The notes: generated by a model not told the origin, from the sequence alone. A stretch of DNA of 64,000 nucleotides from an uncultured delta proteobacterium (GCA_963745025.1 CAVUWD010000013.1:224001-288000), one strand, 5' to 3'. Positions 880 to 37,777 are shown, numbered from the stretch's first letter. Made by a program: numbers and translations.

Positions 880-909
880 GAGGATCAGACCATCTCTGGG
901 TTCTTGCAG

Positions 910-925
910 TGCAAGGCTCGAACCA
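910..925 (-). promoter_or_regulatory. sigma-54 (-24/-12) promoter
   Basis: Minus strand TGGTTCGAGCCTTGCA (GG-N10-GC) upstream of the ABC permease; palindrome-like TTCTCATAATTGGAGA at 998-1013. Confidence 0.6.
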
Positions 926-1049
926 GTGGGACCTTACCTGTCTCGACGGTCCCGCTGGCTCTCGCTTTGTCAGGCACGGTAATTTCCGCCGATAGCATTC
1001 TCATAATTGGAGACGCGCGGAATGCGCTCGCCAGCCTAGCGCATCCGCC

Positions 1050-1955
1050 CTAGGTCCCGGGAGCGAGCGGGGGAAGCGAGCGCAAGTATAATAGAATGGC
1101 CTTTACGTCGTCGGTCGTGAGAGTCGATTCGAGGTGCGGCATGTCCGGCCGCATCTCCCGCCACATGTGCCAGATTTTTTCGCGCAGATCGTTCTCGCCG
1201 GTATTTCGGAAATATGCCGAGTCGAACGCGAGCCGCTTCACATGGCGATGATTGTCTCTCTGCGAAACACCGTGGGGACCGTGACAAGAGACACAGTAAC
1301 GATAGTACAGCTCGTAGCCGGGGGAGAAGAGACGAATGAAGTGGGTGACCTCGTCGGATTCCGAGTCGGTGACGGCAGGAAACTGAGCGGGCATCCCCGG
1401 CCGACCGTGCCGAACCAGCACCCGAAGCTCGTGGTCGCTAAAGGCGGACTGGAAGTTCGGGTCCGAGAGGTCGCGCGAGCTCGGCCGCCCCGCGCTTTCG
1501 ACGTGTCCGTACCGGCCGTGACAACCGCTGCAGCGCCCGAGGTAGATCCTCCGCCCAGCATCGGCGAGCTCCCAGCGAATGGAGGGAAGGCGGCGCAGAA
1601 ACTGTTCGAGAGCCTCGGTCTCGGCGCTTCGGTCTGGCTTTGGCGCCGGGACCCTGAGCTTCGGGCGATCTTCGCGGATGCTTCCTGCTAGCTCGTCGTC
1701 CGAATGCGTCGCGATCAAATCCGTACGGCGGAGATCGGTGGGGGGCGGATTGAAGATGGCACCGTCAGGTCCATCACCAGTTCCCTCGTCTCCGTGGCAT
1801 CGCGCGCAGCTCAAGAGGTAGAGGAGCTTTCCGTGCTCGAGTCCTCCGCGAGGCGGCGAACCGGCTAGAGACGATGCCGCCGAGAGCAGTGGTAGAGCGA
1901 GTGCGAAGATCATCCAGCGTCTTGCTGCCGGTTCGGCTTCGTGGCGAACACGCAT
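1050..1955 (-). CDS. exported triheme cytochrome c (paralog A)
   Basis: CARCH, CSGCH and CVSCH motifs; signal-like MIFALALPLLSAASSLA (alternative start 1913). Confidence 0.85.
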   Translation of the reverse strand: MRVRHEAEPAARRWMIFALALPLLSAASSLAGSPPRGGLEHGKLLYLLSCARCHGDEGTGDGPDGAIFNPPPTDLRRTDLIATHSDDELAGSIREDRPKLRVPAPKPDRSAETEALEQFLRRLPSIRWELADAGRRIYLGRCSGCHGRYGHVESAGRPSSRDLSDPNFQSAFSDHELRVLVRHGRPGMPAQFPAVTDSESDEVTHFIRLFSPGYELYYRYCVSCHGPHGVSQRDNHRHVKRLAFDSAYFRNTGENDLREKIWHMWREMRPDMPHLESTLTTDDVKAILLYLRSLPPLAPGT

Positions 1956-2082
1956 CGTCGAGCTCGACCTTCGAGAAGGGGCGGGTGCTTCAGGGCGAAC
2001 CGATGCGCTGCGGCTTCGTGCCCGAAGGCCCCGCGACGCGCTCATCGGCGCCTCGTTGCCCTCGCGGCGAGGCGACCGGAGT

Positions 2083-2904
2083 TCACTCCTCCTCGGGGAT
2101 CGGCCCTTCGGCGGGCGTCTCGGGCGCCTCGCCCTCGTCCTCGGGAACCACCGGCCGCTCGGCGCCGAGCGGCGTCATGCCGCGCCCCGCGGGAATGCGC
2201 TCCTCGGTGTTCTGATCCTCTTCCGGCGTGCGCTCGCTCTCGTCCGGGAACTCGCGGTCGACGCCCGCGATGCGGAGCCGGTCGATCAGATCGAGTCCCA
2301 TCCCGTCTGCGATGATCTGGCGGAGCACCTGCCGTTGCGGCTCTCCGGGGATGGCTCCCGAGAGCCGCACCACGCCGCCGTGACAGCGGATGCCGATCTT
2401 CAGGAGATCGGCGTCGCCGTGGGCGTGGATCCGCTCGCGCACGGCCTCGGCGAGCTCCGTATCGTCGAGCTCGCGGTACTCCTGCGGCACCGCGCGGTGT
2501 GCACCCGGTTCGAAGGGGCGTGGCGGCGCTCCGCGAGCGCGCTCGCGCTCCCCAGCGCAGTCGACGCACCAGCGCGTCTGCGGGATTGCCTCGAGGCGCG
2601 CGCCGCCGATCAACGCGCCGCAACCCTCGCAGATTCCGTAGCGTCCCGAGGGGATCTTCACCAGCGCGCGGTGAATCTCCTCTAGCTCGTGGCGGTCGCG
2701 CTCGCGGACGCAGTCCAAGAGTCGATCCATCATCTCCTGCTGGCCGCCCGCTTCGACCTCGGGCTCGCGGTTCTCCTCGATCGCTCGCAAGTTTTCCTCG
2801 ACGCCGTCGACTTCGTCGAAGAGCGCGCGCTGCCGGGCCAGAAGGGCGCGCCTCAGGGCGTCGACGGTCTTCTTGTTCAGCGCCATTTTCGCACTTCGGC
2901 TCAT
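2083..2904 (-). CDS. DksA/TraR C4 zinc-finger protein fused to a BON domain
   Basis: Coiled coil plus YGICEGCG...RLEAIPQTRWCVDC; C-terminal DTELAEAVRERI...GGVVRLSG BON-like segment; AGGAGG before ATG 2904. Confidence 0.8.
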   Translation of the reverse strand: MSRSAKMALNKKTVDALRRALLARQRALFDEVDGVEENLRAIEENREPEVEAGGQQEMMDRLLDCVRERDRHELEEIHRALVKIPSGRYGICEGCGALIGGARLEAIPQTRWCVDCAGERERARGAPPRPFEPGAHRAVPQEYRELDDTELAEAVRERIHAHGDADLLKIGIRCHGGVVRLSGAIPGEPQRQVLRQIIADGMGLDLIDRLRIAGVDREFPDESERTPEEDQNTEERIPAGRGMTPLGAERPVVPEDEGEAPETPAEGPIPEEE

Positions 2905-2938
2905 TCGAACCTCCTTCATCGGACGGCGACTCGGCGCG

Positions 2939-3718
2939 CTAGGAGACCGCGCCGCCGGGCTTCGCGCCCGCGCGGGTCGGCGGTCCGAGCGCCGCCTCGC
3001 TCAGGAGTCGACAAACGTCGTCGTCCGAGACCTGTGTGAAATCTTCGTAGAACGCGCCGACCGCCCAGAAGAGCGTCGGCGTCAAGAGGACGATCAGCTC
3101 ATCTACCATCGGGCGGAGCCGCTCGACGGTGTCTGGAGGCGCGACGGGAACGGCGAGCACGATGCGGCCGACCCCCTGCTGGCGGAGCGCCTGGATCGCC
3201 GCGACGACCGTCGAGCCTGTGGCGATGCCGTCGTCGACCAGGATCACGGTGATGTGCGGCCCCAGCTGGAGCGGCGCGCCGCCGCGGAAGAGCTTCTGGC
3301 GCCGAGCGATCTCCTCACGTTGCCGCTTCGTGGCGCGGGAGATGAATGTCTTCGATGCGCCCGTCGTCTCGACCCCTTCGGCGTTCAGGTACGGCTCGCC
3401 GCCTTCGGCCACGGCGCCGATTGCGAACTCGGGATTCTCCGGAGCGCCGAGCTTGCGGGAGATGATGACGTCGAGTGGAAGCTCGAGGCCACGCGCAATC
3501 TCGGCCGCGGGCGGCACTCCACCGCGCGGCAGCCCGAGGACGACCGCGTTCTCCCTGCGGCGGTAACCAGCGAGCCGCGAGGCAAGCAGCCGGCCGGCCT
3601 CCAGCCGATCGCGGAAGCGACTGCGGCGGAGCACACGGCCTTCATCGAGATCTCCGCTCCGCGCAGGAGCGCTCGTGACGGGGTCCAACGAAGACATACG
3701 AGCACCGCGCCTGTCCAT
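2939..3718 (-). CDS. type I phosphoribosyltransferase family protein
   Basis: FRDRLEAGRLLA, LGLPRGGVP and PRPP loop VILVDDGIATGST; start uncertain. Confidence 0.85.
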   Translation of the reverse strand: MDRRGARMSSLDPVTSAPARSGDLDEGRVLRRSRFRDRLEAGRLLASRLAGYRRRENAVVLGLPRGGVPPAAEIARGLELPLDVIISRKLGAPENPEFAIGAVAEGGEPYLNAEGVETTGASKTFISRATKRQREEIARRQKLFRGGAPLQLGPHITVILVDDGIATGSTVVAAIQALRQQGVGRIVLAVPVAPPDTVERLRPMVDELIVLLTPTLFWAVGAFYEDFTQVSDDDVCRLLSEAALGPPTRAGAKPGGAVS

Positions 3719-3723
3719 GGCCT

Positions 3724-3868: not shown

Positions 3869-3884
3869 TGCAAGTCGGGGACCA
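3869..3884 (-). promoter_or_regulatory. sigma-54 promoter
   Basis: Minus strand TGGTCCCCGACTTGCA. Confidence 0.6.
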
Positions 3885-3913
3885 GACGGAGACACCGTCA
3901 AATCGGGACGACC

Positions 3914-3960
3914 TTCCCAGAACTGATAACTAACCTCGGCTGGAATCGCGGAACTGAGAA
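3914..3960. promoter_or_regulatory. tandem candidate activator (enhancer) sites
   Basis: TTCCCA-GAAC-TGATAA (3914) and ATCGCG-GAAC-TGAGAA (3945), 31 bp apart, between divergent promoters. Confidence 0.55.
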
Positions 3961-4020
3961 TTCGGTCGTAGTCGCCGATCCCCGAGGGGCCGTGGTCCTC
4001 GGCAGGCGTCTCGTTCGAGG

Positions 4021-4036
4021 TGGCACGATTGTTGGT
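4021..4036 (+). promoter_or_regulatory. sigma-54-like promoter (TTGG variant)
   Basis: TGGCACGATTGTTGGT upstream of archease-rtcB. Confidence 0.5.
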
Positions 4037-5960: not shown

Positions 5961-6374
5961 CTAGGTCTTATCGTCGGGCACCGATTTGTCGGAACCCGTG
6001 ACCTTGCCGGGAGCTTCCAAGAATGCCTTGAGAATGTCGGTCGTGGTGATGATGCCGACGAGCTTCCCGTCTTCCACGACCGGCAGGCTATCGAGCTTAC
6101 AATCGAGCATTTGCCGCGCGGCCGCTTCCAGTGGAATGGCGGGTGTGACGGTGAGTGGATTCTCGGTCATCGCCGCCGTCACCCGCGTGTCTCGGAGGTG
6201 ACCGGAATGCGCTCCGAGATCGCGATCGGTGATGATGCCGACCAGCCGATCGCCCTCGACGACGGGGAGGCGTCGAAAGCCGCCCGCATTCATCTTCTCC
6301 TGTGCGTCGATGAGGGTGTCGCGCGAAGTGATCGTGACCGGCCTTCGAGTCATATAGCTCATCACTAGCAGCAT
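5961..6374 (-). CDS. CBS-pair protein
   Basis: Two LPVVE...LVGIIT repeats. Confidence 0.9.
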   Translation of the reverse strand: MLLVMSYMTRRPVTITSRDTLIDAQEKMNAGGFRRLPVVEGDRLVGIITDRDLGAHSGHLRDTRVTAAMTENPLTVTPAIPLEAAARQMLDCKLDSLPVVEDGKLVGIITTTDILKAFLEAPGKVTGSDKSVPDDKT

Positions 6375-6401
6375 GGTCTTTCCTCGCTGATTGCCATGAT
6401 A

Positions 6402-6417
6402 AGCGAACTGCGTGCCA
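6402..6417 (-). promoter_or_regulatory. sigma-54 promoter
   Basis: Minus strand TGGCACGCAGTTCGCT; palindrome CTCTCA-GATA-CGGGAA at 6451-6466 and TGAGAA half-site at 6432. Confidence 0.65.
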
Positions 6418-6498
6418 GGCGAAACATTCGTTGAGAAATCGCTGCTCGTCCTCTCAGATACGGGAAAATCTGCAGTGGCTTCTTTAGGAGCGCTAGAG

Positions 6499-9223
6499 TC
6501 AACCAGCGGCGCGCTTTAGGCGGACCGCGGTGGCCTTGTACTGTGGGCACTTCGAGCGCGGATCGTGATGCGGACCGACGACGCGATTGGCGTGAGTCTC
6601 GGGATAGTGGAAGGAGAGGAATACGGTGCCGACGTTGACGCGCGGACGACAGCCGCGCAGGCACGCGCGTGCGGCCCCAGCGGCTCTCGACCTCGACGGC
6701 GTCGCCGTCGGCGATCGCCACGCGCGCGGCGTCTTCGGGGTGCGATCTGAGCTCGTCGACCGGCGCGAGCGTGCGGCTCGGGGTGCGGCGGGTCATGGTG
6801 CCGACGTTGTAGTGCTGGAGGACGCGGCCGGTGATCAGCAGCTAGGGATAGCCGGCGACGTCGTGCTCCGGGCTGGCGCGATAGTCGACGGCAGTCAGTC
6901 GTCCGCGGCCGCGCAGGAACTCCGTCGCGTGAACGCGTCGCTGTCCCCGGGTGATCGGGGCTAGGACACGGCCACTGTAGGCCATCTCCGCCGAGCCGGT
7001 CGTAGCGCACGCCGCCGAAGAGCGCGGGCGCAACGCGGCGCGATCTCGTCCATGACGTCGCCGGGTTGGCGTAGGACCAAGGCGCAGCCGAGCGCGTGCG
7101 CCACGTCGCGAATGATCTGCCAGTCCGGCTGCGCTTCTCCCGGGGGTACGACCGCCGGCCGCACGTGCTGGATGCGGCGCTCGGCGTTGGTGAAGGTGCC
7201 CTCCTGCTCGAGAACGCCCGCGGCGGGGAGCACCAGATGCGCGCGCTCGGCGGTCGGGTCAGGAAGAGCTCCTGGACCACGAGAAGATCGAGCGCGTCGA
7301 GGGCTTCGAGAACGCGGGTCTCGTCGGGGTCGCTCTGCGCGACGTCTTCGCCCTGGATCCACAGCGCGCGCAGTTCGCCGTGCTCGCGCGGCGTCGAGCA
7401 TCTCCGGAATCGTCAGCCCGGGCTCGAGCGGCGGAGCGCTGGCCCCAGAGCTCGCGGAAGCGGCGCGCGCACGGCCGGATCGTCGAGCGGCTGATAGCCG
7501 GTCAGCTGGGTCGGGCATGCCGCCCATGTCGGCGTTGCCCTGCACGTTGTTCTGGCCGCGCAGCGGCAGCATGCCGGCGCCCGGGCGCCCGATGCTGCCG
7601 GTGAGCAGCGCCAGGTTTGCGAGCGCCATCACCGACGCCGTGCCCTGCGTGAGCTCCGAGAGGCCGAGGCCGTGCACGAAGAGGATAGGCCCGGCGCGGC
7701 CGATCGCTTCGCGCGGCTCGCCGAATGTCGCGAGCTCGCGACCTCCGTGATCGCGCGCCGCCTCCGCGAGCGTGACCGACGCGAGAAACGCAGCGAGCTC
7801 TTCGAGACCCGCTCGCCGCGTGCGCGAGGTAGTCGCGATCGACGAGCCCCTCGTCGAGCAGGATCTTCGCGATGCGCGTTGAAGAGCGCGACGTTCGTGC
7901 CCGGGCGGAGCGCGAGATGGAGCGTCGGCGAGCGCCGCGAGCTCGATGCGCCGCGGATCGATCACGACGAGCGCGGCGCCGCGCGAGCACCGCCTGCTTG
8001 ATGCGCGCGCCGACCACCGGGTGCGCCTCGGTCGGGTTGGCGCCAGCGACCACGATCAGGCGCGCGCGCTCGATGTCGACGTAGGACGCCGTGGCGGCGC
8101 CGGTGCCGGTCACGAGCTGCAGCGCGGCCGCCGTCGACGAGTGGCAGACGCGCGCGCAGCAGTCGACGTTGTTGGTGCCGAGCGCGGCTGCGGAAGAGCT
8201 TCTGCAGCAGGTAGGCCGCCTCGTTGGTCGAGCGCGACGAGGTCAGCGCGCCGAGCGCGTTCGGGCCGTGCGCGTCGCGGATCTCGCGAGCCGGCGTGCG
8301 GCGCACGCGATCGCCTCGTCCCAGCCGACCGGCGCGGAGCGTTCCCCCGTCGCGCAGCAGCGGCGTCGTCAGCCGTTCGGGCGAGCTCTGCCAGCGCGTG
8401 CGCGTAGCGGCCCTTCGCGCACAGGTGGCCGCGGTTCACCGCCGCCTCGGCACGCCGCGGATCCGCAGCACCCTGCGCGTGCGCCCGTTTCGATCTCGAC
8501 CCGGCAGCCGACGCCGCAGTAGCCGCAGACGGACTCGGTGACCGCGATCGACGGAGTCGATGCGTCCGCAGCCGCCGGGCGTGCGACCTCGCTCCCGGTC
8601 TCGATCGAGGATCGCTCCGGTCGGGCAGAGGTCCACGCAGGCGCCGCACGCCGTGCAGGCGCTCTGCGCGAAGCGCTCGCCTGGACCGAAGACCAGGTCG
8701 GGCTTCGCCGCCGCGGCCGGCGATCGCGTAGACGAACTGGCCCTGGATCTCCTCGCAGACGTGCAGGCAGCGCCGGCACGTGATGCAGCGCGTCGGGATC
8801 GAAGCGGAGGTAGGGATGGCTTCGATCGATCGCGGTCTCACGCGCGTGGTAGCCGAACGGCGATCGGCCTGCGTCGAACTGCCGGAGCAGCCGCTCGAAC
8901 TTGCTTCCTCGCTCGCTCGGCACGAAACGTCCTTCGCGATGCTCACTCGCCACCAGGCCGAGAATCTCGCGGCGAAGCCGACCGAGGCGCGGGCTCTCCG
9001 TCCGCACCGACATCCCCGCGCCAAGCGGCGAATGGCAGGCCGCGTGGGGCCGATCATCCCCGTCGATCTCGACGAGACAGATCCGGCAGTTCCCCTCCGG
9101 CGCGAGGCCTGGGTGGTAGCAGAGCGTCGGAACGTCGATACCGTGCCGCCGTGCCGCCTCGAGAATCGTGTCGCCGTCGCGGACTTCGACGGTCGTGCCG
9201 TCGATGATCGCAGTACGCCTCAT
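6499..9223 (-). CDS. formate dehydrogenase alpha subunit (FdsA/FdhF type, Cys ligand), multiply frameshifted
   Basis: N-terminal 2Fe-2S (VPTLCYHP..GNCRICLVE), ferredoxin motifs, CGYCGVGC, NNVDCCARVCHSST, RGQNNVQG, GTFTNAERR and C-terminal CPQYKATAV spread over several frames. Confidence 0.85.
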
Positions 9224-10868
9224 GCCGTTTCGTCCGAGGGCTCGCTGAAGATCGCTTCTCCGAAGTGCTCGATCAGCTCGCGAATGGGCCCCGGCAGGAG
9301 CTGCCCGAATGCGCACAAGCTGCCGTCGTGCATCACATCGCAGAGACGGAGAAGCAGCTCTCGTGCATCGGCGCGGTGGAGGTTTTTCGCGAGATCCGCG
9401 GCACGGCGCGAGCCGATCCCACAGGGCACGCATTTGCCGCAGGATTCGTCGCGCATGAAGGCGAGCCAATGGCGAAGGAGCGCCGCGAAGTCGGTGTCGT
9501 GCGGGACGGCGACGATGCCGCCATGACCGAGCTGGATGCCCCGCTGCGCCATCGCCGCGTAACAGACCGGCACGTTCCACGCCGGCGGAAGTAACACGCT
9601 TCCCATCGGGCCGCCGAGCAGCACGGCGGCCAGCGGCTTCCCGTCGCGCCCCCCGCCGCCGGCTTCTTCGATGACCACGCGGAGCGGCGTGCCGAACTCC
9701 ACCTCGACGATCCCGGGGCGCTCGAAGCCCGGTTCAAGCACAGCGCCTTCGTGCCCGAGGACTCTGCCGTGCCGAGCGCGCGCGAATGCCTCGGCCCCGC
9801 GGAGCATGATCCACGGCACGTTGACGAGCGTCTCCACGTTGTCGATCACGGTCGGCTTGCCATGGAGCCCCGCGACTGCCGGGTACGGCGGGCGCAGGCG
9901 GACCTCGCCGCGACGCCCTTCGATCGCGTTCAGCATCGCCGTCTCCTCGCCGCATACGTAGCTGCCCATGCCGGGGAAGACCGTTACGTCGAAGGCGAAG
10001 TCGCTGCCGAGAGCTCGCTCGCCGAGAATGCCCGGCGCGCCGTGCGTCGCGAACCGCGCGTCTCGACTCTTTCTTGAGCGCGCGGATATTCGGAGCGGAT
10101 GAACACGATGCCTCGCTTCGCGCCGACCGCGTAGGCGCAGATCGCGAGGCCTTCGAGCACCGCGTGTGGATCCTCCTCCATGAGCGCGCGATCGATGAAC
10201 GACCCTGGATCGCCCTCGTCTCCGTTGGCGATCACGAAGCGCATGTCGGTCTCCGTCGAGGCGCACACGCGCCACTTCGTCCCAGTCGGGTAGGCCGCGC
10301 CCCCTCGGCCGCGCTCCCCGGAACGCTCCATGGCCTCGAGGATCTCCGAAGGCCCACGGCGAAGCGCGGCGGCGAGCCCCTCGTAGACTCCAGCGGCGCG
10401 CGCCCGCTCGAGCGTGGAGTGGTCGCCACGGGAGATTCGCGCGGTGACGATCGGCTCACTGACGAGACTGCGGATGTTCGGCACCGCGGATGCCGAGGCC
10501 GTGGCGGCGAACAGCGACTCGGCCGTTTCGACGTCACAATCGGCAACCACGGTGCCGTTCGGCCGGAGCACGGCCGGCGAACGGTCGCAGTAACCCACGC
10601 AGTACACGCCCTCGCAGGGTCCTTTCGCCGAGAGGCGTCGGTAGATCTCGTCGGCGCCGGATAGAGCGCACGAGGTGCCGCGGCAGACCCGCGGCCCGTC
10701 CGGACGCGAATGGAGATCGGCGTAGTAGGAGACCGTGCCGCGGACCTCCGCCGCCGGGAGGCCGAGCTCGAGAGCGAGCCGCCGCGCAGCGCCCGCGTCG
10801 AGCGGGCCTTCGCGGCGAACGCGGTCACGAAGCGTGAGGAGCGGAAAGTCGGGTCGGTCGTGCTTCAT
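9220..10868 (-). CDS. NuoE-NuoF fused diaphorase subunit (FdsG+FdsB-like), frameshifted
   Basis: VCRGTSC..CVGYCDRSP (NuoE); GRGGAAYPTGTKW, NGDEGDPGSFIDR, YVCGEETA, ESCGKCVPC, SLCAFG (NuoF); frameshifts near 10.05 and 9.75 kb. Confidence 0.85.
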
Positions 10869-10912: not shown

Positions 10913-10928
10913 AGCATGAGTCGTGCCG
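10913..10928 (-). promoter_or_regulatory. sigma-54 promoter
   Basis: Minus strand CGGCACGACTCATGCT upstream of the FDH operon. Confidence 0.6.
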
Positions 10929-11009: not shown

Positions 11010-12773
11010 ATGAAGAACCCACAGGTCGCGCAAATCTTTCGGGAGATCTCGGCGTTGCTCGACATGGAGGGCGTGCCGTTCAAGCCGCGCGCCTACGAGA
11101 AGGCCGCGGCGTCGATTGCGGCGCTCGAAGATCCCATCGAGGAGATCTTCGCGCGCGGAGGCGTCAAGGCGCTCGAAACGATTCCCGGCATCGGCAAGTC
11201 GTTCGCCGCCAAGATCGCGGAGTTTCTCACCAGCGGAAAAGTCGCGGACCACGAGAAGCTCCGCGCCGCGACGCCGGTCGATCTCGATCGCCTGCTCGGA
11301 ATCGAGGGCCTCGGCCCGAAGGGGATCAAATCGCTCTACGAGCATATCGGAGTCCGCACGCTCGCCGATCTCGAAGCGGCCGCGCGCGCCGGCAAGATCC
11401 GGCACGTTCCGGGGTTCGGTGAAAAGAGCGAGCAGAAGATCCTTCAGGGGATTGGCTTCCTGCAGGCCCGCGCCGGGCGGCTGCCGATCGGTGCAGTGCT
11501 GCCGCTCGCGCGCGAGATCGAAGCGCGCCTCGGCGAGATCCGCGGGGTCAAGCAGGTGGCGATCGCCGGCAGCATCCGCCGGCGAAAGGAAACGATCGGC
11601 GACATGGACTTCCTGGTCGTCGCGTCGGATCCGGCGCTCGTCATGGAGCGCTTCGCGACCATGCCCGAAGTCGCCGTCGTCCACGCGCGGGGCTCGACCA
11701 AGGGGTCGGTGCGATTGTCGATCGGCATGGATGCGGACTTGCGGCTGGTTCCCGCAGGGAGCTTCGGAGCCGCGCTGCAGTACTTCACGGGCAGCAAGGA
11801 TCACAGCGTGGCCTGCCGCAAGATCGCCATCGAGAAGGGCTTGAAGCTGAACGAGTACGGAGTCTTTCGCGGGTCGCGATCGATCGCCGGGCGCAGCGAA
11901 GAAGAGGTCTACGCGGCGCTCGGCCTGCCGTGGATCGCGCCCGAGCTGCGCGAGGACCGAGGAGAGATCGCTGCGGCGCTCGCCGGCAAGCTCCCGCACC
12001 TGCTCGACTACGGAAGCCTGCGCGGCGATCTGCAGACGCAAACCAGCTGGACCGACGGTGCCGACTCGATCGAGGCGATGGCCCGGGCCGCGAAGCAGCT
12101 CGGCCTCGAGTACATCGCGATCACCGACCATACGCAAAGCTTGGCGATGACGCGCGGCTCGGACGAGAAAAAGCTGCGCCGCCAAATGGCCGACATCGAC
12201 GCGATCAACGGCAAGTTGCGGGGCATTCGGATCTTGAAGGGAGCCGAAGTCAACATCCAGCGCGACGGGACGCTCGACATCGACGACGCGACGCTCGCGG
12301 TGCTCGATGTCGTCGGTGTCGCGGTTCACTCCCACTTCCATCTCCCTCGCAAGGAGATGACCGCGCGAATTTGCCGCGCCATGCGGAATCCCCACGCCGA
12401 CATCCTCTTTCACCCAACCGGGCGGGTGCTCGGCAGGCGCGAGCCCTACGAGGTCGATTTCGAAGAGATCGTCCGGGTGGCGCTCGAGACCGGGACCGCC
12501 TTGGAGATCGACGCCTTCCCCGATCGGCTGGACCTGAACGACGACCATGCCCGGCGCGCGGTGGAGGCCGGGGTGAAGCTCACCATCGATTCCGATGCCC
12601 ACTCGGCGGCGCATTTTCCTTTCCTCGACTATGGTATCGCGGTCGCGCGGCGTGGATGGGTCGAGGCGAAGAACGTGCTCAACACTCAGCCCGTGGAGCG
12701 GCTGCTGGCCTCGCTGAAGGGCGGTCCGGGCCCGGGCCGAAAGGGTAGCGGCAGGCGCCATTCTCAACGGTAG
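11010..12773 (+). CDS. polX: DNA polymerase X / PHP-domain protein
   Basis: HhH motifs, AGSIRRRKETIGDMDFL, YFTGSKDH, LNEYG; PHP motifs AITDH, HPTGR, IDSDAH. Confidence 0.93.
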   Translation: MKNPQVAQIFREISALLDMEGVPFKPRAYEKAAASIAALEDPIEEIFARGGVKALETIPGIGKSFAAKIAEFLTSGKVADHEKLRAATPVDLDRLLGIEGLGPKGIKSLYEHIGVRTLADLEAAARAGKIRHVPGFGEKSEQKILQGIGFLQARAGRLPIGAVLPLAREIEARLGEIRGVKQVAIAGSIRRRKETIGDMDFLVVASDPALVMERFATMPEVAVVHARGSTKGSVRLSIGMDADLRLVPAGSFGAALQYFTGSKDHSVACRKIAIEKGLKLNEYGVFRGSRSIAGRSEEEVYAALGLPWIAPELREDRGEIAAALAGKLPHLLDYGSLRGDLQTQTSWTDGADSIEAMARAAKQLGLEYIAITDHTQSLAMTRGSDEKKLRRQMADIDAINGKLRGIRILKGAEVNIQRDGTLDIDDATLAVLDVVGVAVHSHFHLPRKEMTARICRAMRNPHADILFHPTGRVLGRREPYEVDFEEIVRVALETGTALEIDAFPDRLDLNDDHARRAVEAGVKLTIDSDAHSAAHFPFLDYGIAVARRGWVEAKNVLNTQPVERLLASLKGGPGPGRKGSGRRHSQR

Positions 12774-12807
12774 GAACGAGGGCGAGACGGTTTCTCAGCG
12801 CTTGGAA
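12761..12807. promoter_or_regulatory. tandem candidate activator sites
   Basis: TTCTCA-ACGG-TAGGAA (12761) and TTCTCA-GCGC-TTGGAA (12792), 31 bp apart. Confidence 0.6.
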
Positions 12808-12836
12808 GGATCGGCGGGTCCCCGGCTTCGCGAGCC

Positions 12837-12852
12837 GGGCACGGTCCATGCT
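12837..12852 (+). promoter_or_regulatory. sigma-54 promoter
   Basis: GGGCACGGTCCATGCT; ATG 14 nt after the -12 C. Confidence 0.65.
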
Positions 12853-12864
12853 TTTCGACGGTAC

Positions 12865-13536
12865 ATGATGCGAAAGACGGATGACCAAATTCGCAAGGAA
12901 GTGCTCGACGAGCTCGAGTGGGACAGCCGGCTCGCCTCGTCCGAGATCGGCGCCCACGTGAGAGACGGCGTGGTGACGCTGATCGGGACGACCGGGAGCT
13001 ATGCCGCAAAGCTCGCGGCCGAGGAGGGCGCGCACCGCATCCCCGGTGTGCTCGACGTGGCGAACGACATCCAGGTGAGGACCGTGGGCAAGGCCGCGCG
13101 CAGCGACAGCGAGCTCGCCCAGGCCGTGCGGCGAACGCTCGAGTGGGATGCGCTCGTCGACGACGAGAGCATCCATTCGACCGTGTCGGACGGCTGGGTG
13201 ACTCTCAGCGGCACGGTCGATCGGCTGCGTGAGCGCGAAGATGCGGAACGCGCGGTGCGACATCTCACCGGTGTCCGCGGCGTCACCAACGCGATCGAGG
13301 TCCTCGGCCCGCCGCCGAACGCGGAGAAGCTCCGCGAAAAGCTTCTCGGTGCTCTCGAACGGCGCGCGCGCCGCGAAGCGCGACACATTCGCGTGCAGGT
13401 GGAGGAGCATTCGGTGACGCTGTCCGGTAAGGTCGACTCCTGGCTCGAGAAGCGCGCCGTGCTCGGCATCGTGTCTCACACGCCCGGCGTCCGGCGAGTC
13501 AACGACGCTCTCGAAGTCGATCCGTACCACTCCTAG
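12865..13536 (+). CDS. triple-BON domain (OsmY-like) protein
   Basis: Three repeats of D..I...V...L.WD / G.VTL.G.V / GV..V.N. Confidence 0.9.
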   Translation: MMRKTDDQIRKEVLDELEWDSRLASSEIGAHVRDGVVTLIGTTGSYAAKLAAEEGAHRIPGVLDVANDIQVRTVGKAARSDSELAQAVRRTLEWDALVDDESIHSTVSDGWVTLSGTVDRLREREDAERAVRHLTGVRGVTNAIEVLGPPPNAEKLREKLLGALERRARREARHIRVQVEEHSVTLSGKVDSWLEKRAVLGIVSHTPGVRRVNDALEVDPYHS

Positions 13537-13544
13537 AGCCAAGG

Positions 13545-14828: not shown

Positions 14829-15709
14829 TGCGCTGGGTGCTTCTGTCGCTCTTGCTTGCGGGTGTGGCGTCCGCGGCAGGGCCGGTCGATAAATCCGAGA
14901 TCGAGCGTGGGCGTAAGCTGTACGTCCTCGACTGTGCTCGCTGCCACGGCAACGGCGCCACCGGCGATGGTCCAGACGGACGCGCGCTCGAAGCCCGTCC
15001 CGCGGACCTCCGCCGCGGTGACGTCCTCGGCACGCACACCGACGAGCAGCTCATCACCCGCATTCGCGAGGGTCAGCCGAGACTCCGGCTCGTGTTGCCG
15101 ATGCCGCGCCGATCGAGCGAGACCGAAGCGATCGAGGAATTCCTGCGCAGTATCCCGTCCGTTCGCTGGCCGCTCGCAGATACCGGTCGCGCGCTCTATC
15201 TCAGTCGCTGCGACGACTGTCACGGACGCTACGGACACGGCGACGGCGCGGCGCTGGATCGATCGCGTCGCGCTCCGCGCGACCTTTCGGATCCGAGCTT
15301 CCAGCATCAGGTGACGGATCGAGAACTCGCTCTGTTGGTTCGCCATGCGAAGCCGGGAATGCCCAAGCTTCACCCTCCACCGAGTGAAGCGGAGGCACCT
15401 CCGCTCGTGAGCTTCGTCCGGCTTCTCTCTCCGGGCTACGAACTCTATTACCGCTACTGTGTCACCTGCCACGGTCCTCACGGAAGAAGCGGCGAGACCA
15501 AAGCCGGTGGGCGGCCGCGCTTCGTCTTCGACGAGCGCTACTTCCGCAGCCTCTACGCCGAGGATCTTCGCGAGCGGATCTGGCACATGCTACGCGGCGT
15601 GAAGCCCGAGATGCCGCACTTGGAGGCCGCGCTCACCATCGGCGAAGTCAAGGCGATCCTCGCCTACCTGCGATCGCTTCCCAAGCTTCCGACAGGGGCG
15701 CCGGGCTAG
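14828..15709 (+). CDS. exported triheme cytochrome c (paralog B)
   Basis: MRWVLLSLLLAGVASA signal; CARCH, CDDCH, CVTCH; TGATG coupling to the MFS gene. Confidence 0.85.
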   Translation: MRWVLLSLLLAGVASAAGPVDKSEIERGRKLYVLDCARCHGNGATGDGPDGRALEARPADLRRGDVLGTHTDEQLITRIREGQPRLRLVLPMPRRSSETEAIEEFLRSIPSVRWPLADTGRALYLSRCDDCHGRYGHGDGAALDRSRRAPRDLSDPSFQHQVTDRELALLVRHAKPGMPKLHPPPSEAEAPPLVSFVRLLSPGYELYYRYCVTCHGPHGRSGETKAGGRPRFVFDERYFRSLYAEDLRERIWHMLRGVKPEMPHLEAALTIGEVKAILAYLRSLPKLPTGAPG

Positions 15710-17078: not shown

Positions 17079-17126
17079 TTCTCGGAAACGAGGACGATTC
17101 CGCCGTTCTTCTCCCACGGATGAGAA
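17079..17126. promoter_or_regulatory. tandem candidate activator sites
   Basis: TTCTCG-GAAA-CGAGGA (17079) and CTCCCA-CGGA-TGAGAA (17111); no clear sigma-54 core found beside them. Confidence 0.45.
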
Positions 17127-17655: not shown

Positions 17656-17686
17656 TCCAAGATCCATGCCGGGCACGAGGGTTGCT
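17656..17686. promoter_or_regulatory. back-to-back divergent sigma-54 promoters
   Basis: Minus CGGCATGGATCTTGGA (17656-17671) and plus GGGCACGAGGGTTGCT (17671-17686); each -12 position is 14 nt from a start codon. Confidence 0.65.
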
Positions 17687-17698
17687 TGCTTCGAGCTC

Positions 17699-18571: not shown

Positions 18572-18582
18572 ATGCACACCAA

Positions 18583-18598
18583 CGGCACGAACCTTGGA
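18583..18598 (+). promoter_or_regulatory. sigma-54-like promoter (TTGG variant)
   Basis: CGGCACGAACCTTGGA. Confidence 0.5.
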
Positions 18599-18638
18599 CG
18601 GTCGTGGCCAGGACTTTGAAGCGAAAGTAGACACAATC

Positions 18639-18827: not shown

Positions 18828-18832
18828 GTGCC

Positions 18833-25032: not shown

Positions 25033-25131
25033 GCCTCGGCTGTTACGGCAATTTTCCGTGGTGAGCAAGCGGCGGAACCAGCGAGGGCGCTTCCGATGGT
25101 CAAATGAAACTCCATCCCACGTAGTGGTCGC

Positions 25132-25178
25132 TTCTCGCTTTCAGGAAGCGTCCGAGCGTGCCTTCGCAAAAACGGGAA
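25132..25178. promoter_or_regulatory. tandem candidate activator sites upstream of nor operon
   Basis: TTCTCG-CTTT-CAGGAA (25132) and TTCGCA-AAAA-CGGGAA (25163), 31 bp apart. Confidence 0.6.
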
Positions 25179-26388: not shown

Positions 26389-26404
26389 AGCAAGTAACCT
26401 GCCA
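26389..26404 (-). promoter_or_regulatory. sigma-54 promoter
   Basis: Minus strand TGGCAGGTTACTTGCT; TTCTCA-TTTC-TTGGAC at 26476 with a weaker partner at 26445. Confidence 0.7.
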
Positions 26405-26531
26405 CGACATCGGAGCCGAATTGCGTCACCTCGGTCGATCGAGTCTCGTAGCGCCGGGAAGCCTTCACCCGGCGTTTCTCATTTCTTGGACGAAGCGACG
26501 CCGTATCCTTAACTGGAGGATGAGCATAGGA

Positions 26532-26547
26532 TGGTACGAATCCTGCT
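26532..26547 (+). promoter_or_regulatory. sigma-54 promoter
   Basis: TGGTACGAATCCTGCT; GTG 14 nt after the -12 C. Confidence 0.6.
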
Positions 26548-26559: not shown

Positions 26560-26781
26560 GTGGAAAACGTAACGGAGCTGCTGCCTTTCGTACTTTCGGT
26601 TATGGCGATCGCAGGCATCGTGTTCCTCGCCACGATCACGATCTCGGCGGCGTGGGTGTATCGATCCTTGCGCGGCATTCACCGAGCCGAATGGCCATTG
26701 ACGGGCAAGCTCGCGGCGATCGAGCTCGACGCGGTTCGGCGGCTGCATTCTTTGGCATCCAGCACCGTCGCGTCTCATTAA
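26560..26781 (+). CDS. small single-TM hypothetical protein
   Basis: Hydrophobic N-terminal helix; start fits the promoter spacing; directly precedes the ACAD gene. Confidence 0.5.
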   Translation: MENVTELLPFVLSVMAIAGIVFLATITISAAWVYRSLRGIHRAEWPLTGKLAAIELDAVRRLHSLASSTVASH

Positions 26782-26804
26782 CGACAGATTTTCTGGAGGG
26801 CTCC

Positions 26805-28021
26805 ATGGACTTCAGCATTCCCGACGAGATCCGCGAGCTTTGCGACGGCATCCAACGCTTCATGGACGAGCACGTCTATCCGCTCGAGCGCTCCGAGCGA
26901 TGGCGCATGGAAGCTGGGCGGCCCGGCGTATCCGCCGCGATGAAGGCGGTGCAGGAACGGGCGAAAGCCCTCGGGTATTGGGCGTTCCACCTGCCGGCCG
27001 AGGCCGGAGGCGCAGGCATCCCGTTCATGCATTACGTCTACGTCAACGAGATCCTCGGCAGGAGCCCGTTCGGGCCGGCTTGCGTGGGCTCCCAGGCGCC
27101 GGACTCGGGGAACGCGGAGATTCTCTGGCGCTTCGGCACGCCGGAGCAGAAGGAAGCGCTGGCTCGAGCCGCTGGTCGCGGGCGATATCCGCAGCTGCTT
27201 CTCGATGACGGAGCCGGAGGTCGCGGGCTCCGATCCGCGCTGGCTCCGCACCACCGCGGTTCGCGACGGCGATCACTACGTCGTCAACGGTCACAAGTGG
27301 TTCTCGAGCGGTGCGCACGGCGCGGCGTTCGCGATCGTCATGGCGCAAGACAATCCCGCAGCATCCCGACCCGCATCGTCGCTTCAGCCAGATCATCGTG
27401 CCGACCGACACGCCGGGCTTCACGATCGAGCGCGGGCATCCCGGTGATGGGCGACGACGACAACCATCACGCCGAGATTCGCTACGAGGACTGCCGCGTG
27501 CCCGGTCACCAATCGTCTCGGCGAGGAGGGATCGGGGTTCGCGATCGCGCAGGAGCGCCTCGGCCCCGGGCGGATCCATCACTGCATGCGCTGGCTCGGC
27601 GTGGCCGAGCGCGCCTTCGAGCTGATGTGTCGCTACGCCACCGAGCGCGAGGTGTTCGGCTCGGCGCTCGCGCGCAAGGCGAACATCCAGGACTGGATCG
27701 CCGAGGCGCGCGCGGACATCCATGCCGCGCGGCTGATGACGCTCCACGCGGCCTGGAAGATCGACACCGCAGGGCAGCGAGGCCGCGCGCGAGGAGATCT
27801 CGCTCATCAAGTTCTTCGGCGCGCAGCGTGCTGCACGAGCGTGGTCGACAAGGCGATCCAGGTGCACGGCGCCGCCGGCGCCACCGAGGATCATGCCGCT
27901 GTCGATGTTCTATCGCCAGGCTCGTCTCGCGCGCATCTACGACGGCCCAGACGAGGTCCACAAGATGGTCGTGGCGCGGCGGATCCTCGCGCCATACGAG
28001 TCGTCGCGCCGCATCACCTAG
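26805..28021 (+). CDS. acyl-CoA dehydrogenase, frameshifted
   Basis: [61 protein letters not shown] across frames; GGAGG RBS. Confidence 0.85.
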
Positions 28022-28074
28022 GTGTCTTTGCCGCTACCGTTGGGGAGAAGGCGCCGACTGGCCGGGTGAGGGGG

Positions 28075-28740
28075 CTACCTTCTCAACGGTCGGGCGCGTC
28101 CACTTCCGCGATTCTTCGTCGCCGGCCGCGAGATCTCGCTCGCCTTCGACTCCGTGGTCGTTTTCGGCGGCGCGCGGCGCTCGCCCCAAAGGCGCTTCGA
28201 GATGCCCCGCAGCGCAGCGCCGATGCTCGCCGGCGGTGCCGCTTCGCGGCTGCGTCGATGGGCTTCCACACGTCGCCGCAATCCTTGGTCGGTCGCGCGA
28301 CGCTCGATCATCGCGAGCAGCAGCTCGACGTGCTCTTCGATGCTGCAATGCTCGTCGGTGCTGGCGCCTGCGGATTCGACGCCGCTGATGCGCAAGAGCT
28401 CGGCGTAAACGCGATCGAGCTCCAGCTCCTCGAGCTCCAGCGCAGTCTTCAAAGCGTCGTCGACGTTCGTCGGCGCGGGCCACGAAGTCAGCGCACGCAC
28501 GAAGCCGCGAATCGAGGCGAGGCTCGTGGCGTCGATCGCCTCGAGCCGTTCGGGCTTCTCGATCGCGAGCGCCGCGGCCGCCGAGAGCAACGAGGCGTGC
28601 TGTCGCTCCGCAGACGCCATCTCGGTCCAGAAGGATGCGAGGTCTCGATCGGCGTGCCAACGAGCCGCGAAACCTTGGTAGAGCTCGCCGATATGGCTCT
28701 CCAGCTCCGCGCACTCGCGAAGTAGATCCGCCAGCTGCAC
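28075..28740 (-). CDS. ferritin-like/rubrerythrin-family protein
   Basis: AELESHIGELY..FWTEMASAERQH..ALELE..EEH; paralog of 17131-17643. Confidence 0.75.
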   Translation of the reverse strand: MQLADLLRECAELESHIGELYQGFAARWHADRDLASFWTEMASAERQHASLLSAAAALAIEKPERLEAIDATSLASIRGFVRALTSWPAPTNVDDALKTALELEELELDRVYAELLRISGVESAGASTDEHCSIEEHVELLLAMIERRATDQGLRRRVEAHRRSREAAPPASIGAALRGISKRLWGERRAPPKTTTESKASEISRPATKNRGSGRARPLRR

Positions 28741-30882: not shown

Positions 30883-30898
30883 AGCGAGCGGCGTGCCA
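30883..30898 (-). promoter_or_regulatory. sigma-54 promoter
   Basis: Minus strand TGGCACGCCGCTCGCT; GTG 14 nt after -12; palindromes at 30938 (TTCTCA-TTCC-TGGCAA) and 30970 (CTCTCG-GACT-TCGGAA). Confidence 0.65.
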
Positions 30899-31021
30899 CG
30901 CGATTTCCGGAGTTTTTCTATGGTTTTGCCAGAACTCTTCTCATTCCTGGCAAATCTCGCGATGCGATTCTCTCGGACTTCGGAATTGGCGAGGAGAGGG
31001 GCGGCGCCGGCGCTCCGAGCG

Positions 31022-32032: not shown

Positions 32033-32183
32033 CGCAAATCACATGCCACGATCTGGCCCTGCGATCGAGGCAACTTCATGTGCGTTTTTCTCGTCGCTGA
32101 GAACGTCTCCAAGCGTGTTTCTCAGAACTGGTTACCCCGGCGCTTGGAAAGCGAGGTGCGTCCGGTCTGGCAGTCCAATTGCA
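32033..32183. promoter_or_regulatory. divergent sigma-54 promoters sharing a central enhancer pair
   Basis: Minus TGGCATGTGATTTGCG (32033-32048); TTCTCG-TCGC-TGAGAA (32088) and TTCTCA-GAAC-TGGTTA (32119); plus TGGCAGTCCAATTGCA (32168-32183). Confidence 0.7.
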
Positions 32184-32210: not shown

Positions 32211-32657
32211 ATGCACGAATTTCTCGAATACCGCGTGAGCGACTTCATGAGTCGTAACGGCGTCATGGTGGGGTCCAAGACCCCGCTTAAGGAGGCGGAG
32301 CGACTTTTCGAGCGGCACGACTTCAACCTGCTTCCCGTCGTCGAGGGTCGGCGCTTGGTGGGAGTGCTGACCAAGCTGGACTTCCTGAAGGCGTTCAGCT
32401 TCGGCCCAGATCGGCTGGTGCCGCATTACCAGGAGATCCTTGAACAACAGGTTGGTGCGTTCATGATGCGAAATCCCATGACCGTGTCGCCTGACATGCC
32501 ACTCACCAAAGTGCTCGAGAAGATCGTCGCGACTCGTTACCGATCCTTCCCCGTCGTCGAGGGTGACACGCTGGTGGGCATCATCTCCCGCGAGGACGTC
32601 GTCACGGCGCTCCGCCGCGCCGCCGCATCCAAAGCCACCGCCGCGCGGCCCGCCTGA
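32211..32657 (+). CDS. CBS-pair protein
   Basis: LLPVVEGRRLVGVLT; SFPVVEGDTLVGIISRED. Confidence 0.9.
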   Translation: MHEFLEYRVSDFMSRNGVMVGSKTPLKEAERLFERHDFNLLPVVEGRRLVGVLTKLDFLKAFSFGPDRLVPHYQEILEQQVGAFMMRNPMTVSPDMPLTKVLEKIVATRYRSFPVVEGDTLVGIISREDVVTALRRAAASKATAARPA

Positions 32658-35266: not shown

Positions 35267-35282
35267 CGCAAGTGGTATGCCT
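35267..35282 (-). promoter_or_regulatory. sigma-54 promoter
   Basis: Minus strand AGGCATACCACTTGCG; palindrome TTCCCA-AAAG-CGAGAG at 35327. Confidence 0.6.
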
Positions 35283-35388
35283 TCCTTTATGGCTGGCTGA
35301 TTTTCGGCAGCTTGGGCAAATCCCTATTCCCAAAAGCGAGAGGCAGCGGCCGACTGTATCTGCATATTGCGAAGTCAGCCCGTGGCGA

Positions 35389-35577: not shown

Positions 35578-35585
35578 CGACTCGC

Positions 35586-37016
<1,431 letters not shown>

Positions 37017-37031
37017 GGTCAATCAACTCCA

Positions 37032-37077
37032 TTCTTGATTCAGAGAATTCGTGTCGGAAAATTCTTGATATTGGGAA
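37032..37077. promoter_or_regulatory. tandem palindromes upstream of the regulator (candidate autoregulation)
   Basis: TTCTTG-ATTC-AGAGAA (37032) and TTCTTG-ATAT-TGGGAA (37062). Confidence 0.6.
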
Positions 37078-37081
37078 TTTT

Positions 37082-37516
37082 TCAATGGATCTGCCCACCG
37101 GGTACCTCCTTGAGAAATCCGGCCAACACCTGAAGGCAATCCGTCTCGGTCAGGAGTCCAACGAGTCTTCCGTTCTCGACCACAGGTAAGCACCCGAATT
37201 TCTTGGAGATCATCAAACGAACGGCCTCTTCCAGTGTGTCTTCAGGCGAAACCGTCGAAAGCTCCGTGCTCATCACCAAGCGAACTGGGATTGCCTTCAG
37301 CCAGTCGTGTTCGATCGATCGGCTGAGCTCGAGCACGGATGCGACGGACGCTTTCAAGAGATCTCGCTGGGTTACGAGACCGACGAGACGCCGATTGTCG
37401 GCCAATACCGGAAGATGACGAACGCGGCCGAGGGTCATGATGTCTTCGGCGACGTCTAGAGAATCTTCGAGGCCGAGAGTGGCGACTTCCTTCTGCATGA
37501 TCTCCCGAACTTTCAT
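37082..37516 (-). CDS. CBS-pair protein
   Basis: VRHLPVL..GLVTQRD; FGCLPVVENGRLVGLLTETD; alternative GTG start 37549. Confidence 0.9.
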   Translation of the reverse strand: MKVREIMQKEVATLGLEDSLDVAEDIMTLGRVRHLPVLADNRRLVGLVTQRDLLKASVASVLELSRSIEHDWLKAIPVRLVMSTELSTVSPEDTLEEAVRLMISKKFGCLPVVENGRLVGLLTETDCLQVLAGFLKEVPGGQIH

Positions 37517-37561
37517 CGTAGCTGATCCTTTCGGGCGCGGATGCGCCACGAGCTTCTTCCT

Positions 37562-37577
37562 AGCAACCTTCGTTCCG
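37562..37577 (-). promoter_or_regulatory. sigma-54 promoter
   Basis: Minus strand CGGAACGAAGGTTGCT. Confidence 0.55.
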
Positions 37578-37777
37578 AGGCGGTGGAGGGCTGAGATCCG
37601 CTGTCGGCGCCTAACCTTAGGAGCGAAAATACTTAAACCCGTAGAGCGTGCCGAGCCCGCACCCGACTTGGCCGCCACGAGCTTCTAGGCGCCTCGCGCG
37701 CCTCCAAAGACGGCTCCGCGACTCATCTGGCGCTTGCGACGCGTCCCAGTCGGGTGCGGGCTTGCGTTTGCTCTTCC

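Follow-up and report, generated by a model that had tools for sequence, protein, structure and literature searches.

The 64,000-nucleotide stretch of DNA studied here (the window; GCA_963745025.1 CAVUWD010000013.1:224001-288000, that is C13:224001-288000), from a bacterium catalogued as an uncultured delta proteobacterium, is in our judgement, and with some reserve, probably part of a large sigma-54-dependent regulon of low-oxygen and dormancy genes, which would be run by an NtrC-type activator encoded in the window and acting on paired dyad sites. Computation established the dyad motif with its spacing and its linkage to sigma-54 promoters, the cargo of the operons and conservation in relatives. 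A preliminary description of the window had proposed a sigma-54 regulon with a recurring tandem enhancer, and this proposal was supported by an excess of paired sites at one spacing and by outward-facing promoters near the pairs. The host (5.65 Mb in 20 contigs, 66% GC, completeness 92.65%, contamination 7.6%) is probably an uncultured bacterium of the class Binatia; the nearest named relatives of the activator were found, at 68–69% identity, in two Candidatus Binatia metagenome-assembled genomes. The relatives compared were 30 genomes placed in the same class by genome search.

The preliminary description had reported a 16-bp palindrome that recurs as seven tandem pairs. All seven were recovered at their positions as degenerate sites; its strict consensus, TTCYCANNNNTGRGAA, had no exact match in the window. 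The degenerate dyad derived from a position weight matrix (PWM) reads TTCYCR-N4-YGRGAA (16 bp), and 12 of the 14 claimed sites fit TTCTC-N6-GAGAA with at most two mismatches. The motif had been expected to be more frequent here than in background DNA. Single sites were not enriched over background (46 in the window, where about 38 would be expected; 3378 genome-wide), and pairs with centres 31–32 bp apart were found far above chance; the signal therefore sits in the pair spacing. A consensus scan returned 23 pairs at spacings of 30–33 bp against 0–7 at each other spacing in the range 1–80, and an independent pattern, TTCNC-N6-GNGAA with at most two mismatches in total, returned 13 pairs at 31 and 11 at 32 against 0–7 at the other 18 spacings. 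Both scans are free of the circularity of the PWM, which was symmetrised and trained on pairs spaced 30–33 bp. With this partly circular matrix, pairs scoring at least 25 numbered 21 at spacing 31, 11 at 32 and three at 30, all the other 50 spacings summing to 20. At a score of at least 22, 41 pairs were obtained genome-wide, corresponding to 40 enhancers (one is a triple site); the window holds nine of them, C10:136-240 kb another 15 and the rest of the genome 16. Crude gene calls class about 82% of the genome as coding, and 34 of the 40 enhancers fall wholly between genes. Three pairs of the window had been overlooked before (967/998, 26445/26476 and 35327/35358). Some weak pairs were identical on two contigs (C13:78067 and C15:98278; C16:323452 and C20:240917), which points to duplicated sequence in the assembly, in line with its contamination estimate of 7.6%.

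The genome contains one rpoN gene (Sigma54_DBD match of 208.5 bits, C6:408760-409236). All 13 GG-N10-GC cores listed earlier were present in the window. Such cores alone are not enriched (49 matches against 44.2 ± 6.6 in shuffled sequence), and their significance comes from their position relative to the pairs, not from their number. Within 300 bp of the 41 pairs, 19 outward-facing cores scoring at least 17.5 were found where 0.83 were expected, the inward-facing control giving four. Half of the enhancers (20 of 40) had an outward core scoring at least 16.5 at 10–69 bp, for a total of 24 promoters against 1.24 expected, and four enhancers serve divergent promoters. The gaps between pair and promoter fall into classes of 28–33, 38–44 and 50–54 bp, with single values at 19 and 60, and are periodic (Rayleigh p ~1e-4, period 10.5–11.5 bp); the centre of the proximal dyad lies about 38–70 bp upstream of the -24 GG. 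The earlier suggestion of tandem sites in helical phase is thus borne out both by the 31–32 bp peak and by the periodic distances between sites and promoters.

Nine of the 13 cores of the window have a tandem pair 28–44 bp upstream, pair 26445/26476 being weak; core 6402 has one strong site, and no site was found near cores 10913, 17671 and 37562. Two further promoter elements, at 4021 (archease-RtcB) and at 25064-25080 (a GG-N11-GC element), had escaped the preliminary description. In two promoters of the enhancer-linked set GG stands at -12 in place of GC. Three promoters have a near-identical 16-mer in common, TGGCACGATTGTTGG/T (window 4021-4036 on the plus strand, C10:236763 and C16 near 66266), in which GG or GT replaces GC at -12 and one of which heads archease-RtcB. 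No FNR box was found in the region at up to one mismatch, and no sigma-70 consensus in 24.8–38 kb.

One could suppose that no protein binds the paired dyads and that they arise simply from the AT-rich make-up of the DNA between genes or from a promoter cassette present in several copies. The lack of enrichment of single sites, the AT-rich half-sites in a 66% GC genome and the near-identical recurrence of some promoter 16-mers would fit such an origin. Among the 80 related loci, PWM matches in AT-rich genomes were disregarded as composition artefacts. Composition cannot, however, explain the pairs, because of the sharp peak at 31–32 bp compared with the flanking spacings. Moreover, the spacer sequences differ between copies while the half-sites persist, the sites are helically phased with the promoters, and the architecture recurs in a relative of 55% GC (G021). 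We find this explanation hardly credible, the spacing controls having already largely refuted it.

The candidate reader of the sites is the NtrC-type activator of the window, in which Pfam scans recognised Sigma54_activat (PF00158, 1.6e-71), Response_reg (1.2e-29) and HTH_8 (2.5e-09). A Walker A motif (GESGVGKE), the phospho-acceptor Asp of the receiver and its DD..D..K pattern are visible, and the loop GSFTGA is one substitution away from the GAFTGA consensus; translation probably starts at the ATG at 37016. The protein scored below all the NCBIfam equivalog cut-offs scanned (AtoC, NtrC, ZraR, NtrX, GlrR, NorR, RtcR and NifA), for instance 451.8 against 714 for AtoC (the best), 422.2 against 558.6 for NtrC, 312.4 against 476 for NorR and 325.4 against 650 for RtcR. 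Naming it by NCBIfam was accordingly rejected. The genome encodes 22 full-length activators of this type (bacterial enhancer-binding proteins), and only the gene of the window has strong pairs within 6 kb, four in number and including the best of the genome; none of the other 21 has a pair scoring above 22 within that distance. Its helix-turn-helix (HTH) sequence, DKRKAAELLGLxLSSLYRKIEEL, is common to its orthologues and absent from those 21. The preliminary description had singled out this protein as the activator, and it stands as the best candidate, being the sole activator gene of the 22 with strong pairs and having sites conserved in relatives. From these sequence relationships we infer that the window activator is likely to read the dyad sites.

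The best-scoring pair, 37032/37062, lies between the stop codon of a CBS gene and the ribosome-binding site of the activator gene, ending 2 bp before GGAG and about 490–530 bp downstream of promoter 37562. A GG-N10-GC core is found upstream of the CBS gene also in the sister genome G001 (L127:6010). The autoregulation claimed earlier remains likely in that a pair adjoins the start of the activator gene; it could be of either sign, and no promoter is present between the pair and the gene. Judged by its position the pair is a probable autoregulatory site, and it could be a downstream enhancer or an autorepressing roadblock.

Full-length orthologues of the activator (60–95% identity; paralogues reach at most about 50%) were present in 18 of the 30 relatives. 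All three of the closest ones (G001, G002 and G006) keep the tandem sites at the activator start codon, and it is mainly within the half-sites that their aligned columns are invariant; at the activator start G008 has a single, very strong site, and sites adjoining the orthologues recur also in G003 and G023. In G003 the genes for a CBS protein, a Protoglobin kinase, the activator and the cytochrome c-type nitric oxide reductase (cNOR) form an operon that begins with a pair and a sigma-54 promoter, and the operons of G007 and G023 have similar heads. Orthologues are linked to CBS, universal stress protein (USP) and cNOR genes, a CBS gene adjoining the orthologue in most related loci. Targets that G003 has in common with the host include USP, an avidin-family gene and a molybdopterin oxidoreductase; the avidin-family gene is a conserved enhancer target in two genera (C10:194662-195081, and L138:2244-2657 in G003). 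No pair scoring at least 22 was found within ±6 kb in the named Binatia loci L002 and L003. In G021, from a different family of the class, 12 pairs were counted where the control gave four, with textbook sigma-54 promoters upstream of Hsp20, CBS and NMD3-like genes.

The regulon and its enhancer could be real and yet be read by another of the 21 host activators, the window activator being merely one of the targets. Adjacency of sites to a regulator gene is suggestive and no proof of binding, and in G021 the same motif and architecture occur without a clear orthologue of the window activator. On the other hand, none of the other activator genes lies near a comparable pair, the sites recur beside the orthologues of the window activator in six genomes (G001, G002, G006, G008, G003 and G023), and these orthologues are consistently linked to CBS, USP and cNOR genes. 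We regard a different reader as distinctly unlikely.

The preliminary description had noted that no cognate kinase is encoded in the window, and none was found among the window open reading frames (ORFs) scanned. Among 15 orthologue loci, seven had an adjacent kinase gene, which in five of the seven codes for a haem-globin type (Protoglobin-HisKA-HATPase; G003, G007, G004, G023 and L003) and in L002 and G008 for a PAS or GAF-PAS kinase; the other eight showed no kinase in the stretch seen. Oxygen as the signal is supported because haem-globin kinases adjoin the orthologues in five of 15 loci. The low-oxygen reading put forward earlier thereby gains ground, as it does from targets such as NosZ, NiFe hydrogenase and a hemerythrin. 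In G007 (L114:4249-6927) Protoglobin, HisKA, HATPase, REC, AAA+ and HTH domains follow one another in a single uninterrupted frame of 892 residues, which, going by this frame, would be a sensor kinase fused to its own sigma-54 activator; in the congeneric G003 the Protoglobin kinase and the activator are two genes 28 bp apart. In the host, the best match to the G008 kinase was a PAS/GAF-PAS kinase (C10:177260-179892, split over two frames). A sigma-54 promoter, a strong dyad site and a hemerythrin-domain gene precede it, and the neighbouring gene, for a hybrid REC-PAS-kinase-REC protein, has a sigma-54 promoter of its own; dyad sites accompany the promoters of both kinase candidates.

The wiring may be right and the signal something other than oxygen, namely nitric oxide (NO), redox state, or energy or nutrient starvation perceived through the PAS/GAF kinase, in which case the genes would form a general stationary-phase dormancy regulon. 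Such a signal would suit a host genome without a Protoglobin match and with a candidate kinase carrying PAS and GAF domains, and it would suit a cargo of cNOR and NosZ, which have nitrogen-oxide substrates, together with general stress genes (Hsp20, hibernation factor, Lon and RNA repair). Against it, haem-globin kinases are the commonest partners of the orthologues, the targets include a high-affinity oxidase, a hydrogenase and a hemerythrin, and the analogous NmpR system shows induction by hypoxia (PMC11841059). A non-oxygen signal retains some weight and is, on this evidence, rather improbable; we infer falling oxygen as the likelier input.

Several points weigh against the proposed regulon, its reader and its signal. 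The devices used were crude: gene positions are approximate, coming from a custom codon-usage caller and Pfam scans; the sigma-54 score was built on an ad hoc consensus and weights; and the training of the PWM made its counts partly circular. Half of the enhancers (20 of 40) have no promoter scoring at least 16.5 within 10–69 bp, and three low-scoring enhancers lie wholly inside genes and are probably false. At the orthologue loci of G003, G007, G005 and G004 no site scoring at least 11 was found within ±1.5 kb; wider stretches later gave sites for G003 and, weakly, for G007. In G021 the closest activator shares only 47% identity and differs in its HTH; a search with the C-terminal 84 residues returned only matches of 32–33%, and tblastn over the G021 loci examined none above 47%. 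The motif without a clear orthologue implies that the reader could be another protein, or else that the orthologue has diverged or is unassembled. On the sensor side, no Protoglobin match was found in the host genome, at its completeness of 92.65%, and the candidate kinase of the host is only 32–35% identical to that of G008.

Taken with these reservations, the sigma-54 low-oxygen/dormancy regulon under the window activator would work as follows. The phosphorylated activator (35586-37022) would bind the paired dyads, whose centres, 31–32 bp apart, would stand three helical turns from each other, and would form an AAA+ ring on the same helix face as the RNA polymerase-sigma-54 bound 19–60 bp downstream; its hydrolysis of ATP would then open the promoter. 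About 40 enhancers, several with divergent promoters, would in this way drive genes for low-oxygen and anaerobic energy metabolism (ba3 oxidase, cNOR, NosZ, NiFe hydrogenase and c-type cytochromes), and the same enhancers would drive survival genes of the dormancy type (USP, CBS, BON, Hsp20/GroEL, hibernation factor, RtcB/archease/RtcA, PolX and Lon). The input would most likely be falling oxygen or a related redox or NO cue, sensed in relatives by the haem-globin histidine kinase and in the host likely by the C10 PAS/GAF kinase together with the hybrid kinase.

The features of the window are collected in Table 1.

Table 1. Sigma-54 elements, dyad sites and associated genes of the window (positions from its first nucleotide; pairs are named by the positions of their two sites).
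Feature	Coordinates	Strand	Genes and remarks	Basis
Promoter 910 with pair 967/998	910..1013	-	MacB-like permease gene, runs off the window	
Divergent promoters sharing pair 3914/3945	3869..4036		Promoter 3869 (-): PRT (phosphoribosyltransferase), DksA-BON, dihaem cytochrome c	Pfam
Promoter 4021, GG at -12, pair 3914/3945		+	Archease-RtcB	
Promoter 6402 (score 18.5) with single site 6451 (16.8)	6402..6466	-	Upstream of CBS gene 5961-6374	
-24/-12 element	10913..10928	-	Upstream of fragmented NAD-type formate dehydrogenase (FDH) genes 10828-6365; no adjacent pair	
Pair 12761/12792 with promoter 12837	12761..12852	+	BON, MFS, cytochrome c operon (~12860-15709)	Pfam
Pair 17079/17111	17079..17126		Upstream of K+ channel gene 16038-17036	
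-24/-12 element	17671..17686	+	Upstream of acyltransferase and CBS genes (17666-19264); no adjacent pair	
Pair 25132/25163 with 11-nt element	25064..25178	-	cNOR operon 25068-19636: two small ORFs, NorC, NorB, NorQ, NorD	Pfam
Divergent promoters 26389 (-) and 26532 (+)	26389..26547		26389: dihaem cytochrome c; 26532: acyl-CoA dehydrogenase-like, fragmented	
Weak pair 26445/26476 (score 21.0)			40 bp from each of promoters 26389 and 26532	
Promoter 30883 with pair 30938/30970	30883..30985	-	Operon 30870-28075: DnaJ-like gene, small ORF, tandem USP, USP, rubrerythrin-like gene	Pfam
Divergent promoters 32033 (-) and 32168 (+), common pair 32088/32119	32033..32183		Gaps 39 and 33 bp; two USP genes (31993-31022) and CBS gene (32211-32657)	Pfam
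Promoter 35267-35282 with pair 35327/35358	35267..35373	-	ba3-type oxidase operon 35220-32739	Pfam COX1/COX2
NtrC-type activator gene	35586..37022	-	REC, AAA+ sigma-54 interaction domain, Fis-type HTH	Pfam
Tandem pair 37032/37062	37032..37077		Top pair score genome-wide (39.3); 30 bp apart	
CBS-pair gene	37082..37516	-	First gene of the activator operon	Pfam
-24/-12 element	37562..37577	-	Upstream of the CBS-activator operon; no pair upstream	

The cargo claimed for the window in the preliminary description was supported for cNOR and the ba3 oxidase, each operon having a tandem pair and a sigma-54-like element. That of cNOR, TGGTTCCGCCGCTTGCT (25064-25080, minus strand), lies 51 bp from its pair and has 11 nt, not 10, between GG and GC; the sister genome G001 shows the canonical 10-nt spacing in the same place (L127:18006), and the host spacing may be an assembly indel or homopolymer error or an inactivating change. 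Membership of FDH is doubtful because no pair adjoins promoter 10913: the promoter announced earlier is present, and the genes are fragmented. No sigma-54 element was recognisable between pair 17079/17111 and the K+ channel gene. Hsp20, named in the preliminary description as part of the usual cargo of hypoxia regulons, was absent from the window ORFs scanned, and the three Hsp20 genes lie on C10. Apart from the weak case for FDH, the dormancy/hypoxia regulon as first described was supported overall.

Some genes were split into overlapping ORFs in different frames, both in the window (FDH alpha/beta-like, 6365-10828; acyl-CoA dehydrogenase, 26652-28388) and outside it (KdpA, C11:598078-599793; a GroEL paralogue, C10:236919-238531; and the PAS/GAF kinase on C10). 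At 26844-27434, single-base indels set contigs from other runs apart from the window. The split genes are either pseudogenes or the product of indel errors in the assembly. A fusion of a GNAT domain with an ADP-forming acyl-CoA synthetase (37778-40477, minus strand), which has the architecture of Pat-type protein acetyltransferases, is encoded immediately before the CBS-activator operon, on its upstream side, and an AMP-forming acyl-CoA synthetase gene diverges from it at 40679. The part of the window from 44613 to 63666 holds a cluster for polysaccharide export and biosynthesis (glycosyltransferases, a sugar transferase, Wza/Wzc-like genes and a flippase), two B12-binding radical SAM genes and four consecutive genes of the alkaline-phosphatase/phosphodiesterase family, and contains no dyad pairs.

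The regulon extends well past the window. The C10 cluster comprises USP, CBS and the three Hsp20 genes, GroEL paralogues, an S30AE-cold-shock fusion, RtcA, a DksA-like gene, phosphoribosyl pyrophosphate synthetase, LonC-like, BON, glycogen phosphorylases, NAD synthase, cyclopropane fatty acid synthase, malic enzyme, a hemerythrin-domain protein and multihaem cytochromes. The enhancers scattered over the genome stand upstream of hypAB-NiFe hydrogenase, cytochrome c-NosZ-NosD, Kdp and a USP, among others, and PolX also counts among the cargo. Between them, the two clusters span about 2.5% of the genome and hold 11 of its 26 USP-domain and 18 of its 40 CBS-domain matches. A crude count of operons, too high in places, puts about 70 genes behind the 24 best promoters. 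In the S30AE-cold-shock fusion (C10:193375-193935; L097:3375-3935, minus strand), an S30AE ribosome hibernation factor domain and a cold-shock domain are joined in one protein of 186 residues, whose gene adjoins one with a YbaK-type editing domain. Contigs from RNA libraries (two rice-paddy runs and one sediment run) were 97–99% identical to parts of the activator, CBS, USP and rubrerythrin-like genes; being assembled contigs with possible DNA carry-over, they give only a hint of transcription.

The arrangement resembles several known systems in part. At glnAp2 of enteric bacteria, two NtrC dyads about three helical turns apart nucleate the AAA+ oligomer that activates sigma-54 polymerase. The paired dyads of the host have a like spacing and its activator has the same architecture of REC, AAA+ and Fis-type HTH domains; the signal, site sequence and regulon are different, and the sites are closer to the promoter (proximal centre about 38–70 bp from the -24 GG). 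DosR/DevR of Mycobacterium tuberculosis, a NarL/LuxR-type regulator that acts at sigma-70-type promoters and responds to hypoxia or NO via haem kinases, controls many USPs, the alpha-crystallin Hsp20, CBS proteins, phosphoribosyltransferases and a hibernation factor. The regulon described here carries USP, Hsp20, CBS, PRT and hibernation-factor genes as well and presumably has a like trigger. Unlike DosR, its regulator is a REC-AAA+-HTH_8 protein at sigma-54 promoters, and the resemblance is functional, not homologous. RtcR-rtcBA of Escherichia coli and NorR-norVW are sigma-54 dependent, with a dedicated activator for each operon (RtcR with a CARF and NorR with a GAF domain). RNA-repair and NO-detoxifying genes are under sigma-54 here too, whereas a single REC-type activator appears to serve RtcB/archease, RtcA and cNOR alike.

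The closest likeness is to NmpRSTU of Myxococcus xanthus, where a globin kinase, a hybrid kinase and the NtrC-like NmpR act with sigma-54 on tandem GCGCA-N5-TGCGC sites (PMC11841059). The same source reports that the NmpR operon starts with a CBS gene, that targets include USP, cbb3, HemN and hemerythrin genes, with seven bound promoters, that the target mxan_4236 is induced by hypoxia and that the kinase genes are themselves members of the regulon (McAllister et al., 2025; PMC11841059). Sigma-54-driven hypoxia regulons are thus already known from that account, and the premise of the preliminary description that hypoxia regulons are not sigma-54 driven is outdated, since the hypoxia-responsive NmpR activates CBS, USP and cbb3 genes (PMC11841059). 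The two systems agree in having an NtrC-like regulator, sigma-54, tandem dyads, a regulator operon led by a CBS gene and a regulon with CBS, USP, high-affinity oxidase and hemerythrin genes; kinase genes also belong to both regulons, in the host as candidates. They differ in site (TTCYCR-N4-YGRGAA in the host) and in size, with about 40 enhancers compared with seven promoters, and the host cargo goes beyond that of NmpRSTU in hydrogenase, NosZ, cNOR, Hsp20/GroEL, a hibernation factor and the repair of RNA and DNA. In the Binatia relatives the globin kinase directly adjoins the regulator, in one genome in the same reading frame, and a relay like NmpS/NmpT was not seen there. The best match of the window activator was the activator next to the globin kinase in two of three complete Myxococcaceae-family genomes; no Protoglobin match was found in a Corallococcus genome. 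Reverse BLAST preferred another host activator (C13:75065-76555), with 345 and 381 bits compared with 315 and 347 for the window activator. Orthology to NmpR found no support, the reciprocal best hit having failed for two Myxococcaceae-family genomes.

What is new here is the site, the much larger dormancy-type cargo and the phylum; the NtrC/sigma-54 logic is known and a low-oxygen precedent has been published. No paper on sigma-54 regulation in Binatia or on TTCYCR-N4-YGRGAA was found in a literature search that covered few subscription journals. Binatia are abundant, uncultured bacteria of soils and sediments, and to our knowledge nothing has been reported on their gene regulation. The analysis offers a testable wiring diagram from DNA alone, comprising candidate kinases, an activator, a DNA site, a promoter type and about 40 targets. 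It would extend the NmpR precedent in that low-oxygen regulons under sigma-54 may occur widely and can reach a great size, and the distance classes between enhancer and promoter, about 10 bp apart, would provide a clean natural data set on the short-range reach of AAA+ activators to sigma-54. A bolder generalisation, which we offer only tentatively as we lean somewhat against it, is that throughout the Binatia a hypoxic dormancy programme, with about 40 enhancers, some 70–100 genes and rigid gaps of about 30, 40 or 52 bp, has as its master switch one two-component activator that senses redox state or oxygen. If true, a single AAA+ activator would join roles that are split elsewhere among DosR, FNR/Dnr/NorR, RtcR and the regulators of hibernation factors, over gaps too short for classical looping; the regulon would be among the largest known for a single sigma-54 activator, and the tight off-state of sigma-54 promoters would gate entry into dormancy. 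In waterlogged soil, the regulon is predicted to switch on the NO- and N2O-consuming steps of denitrification, hydrogen oxidation, a high-affinity oxidase and the dormancy toolkit.

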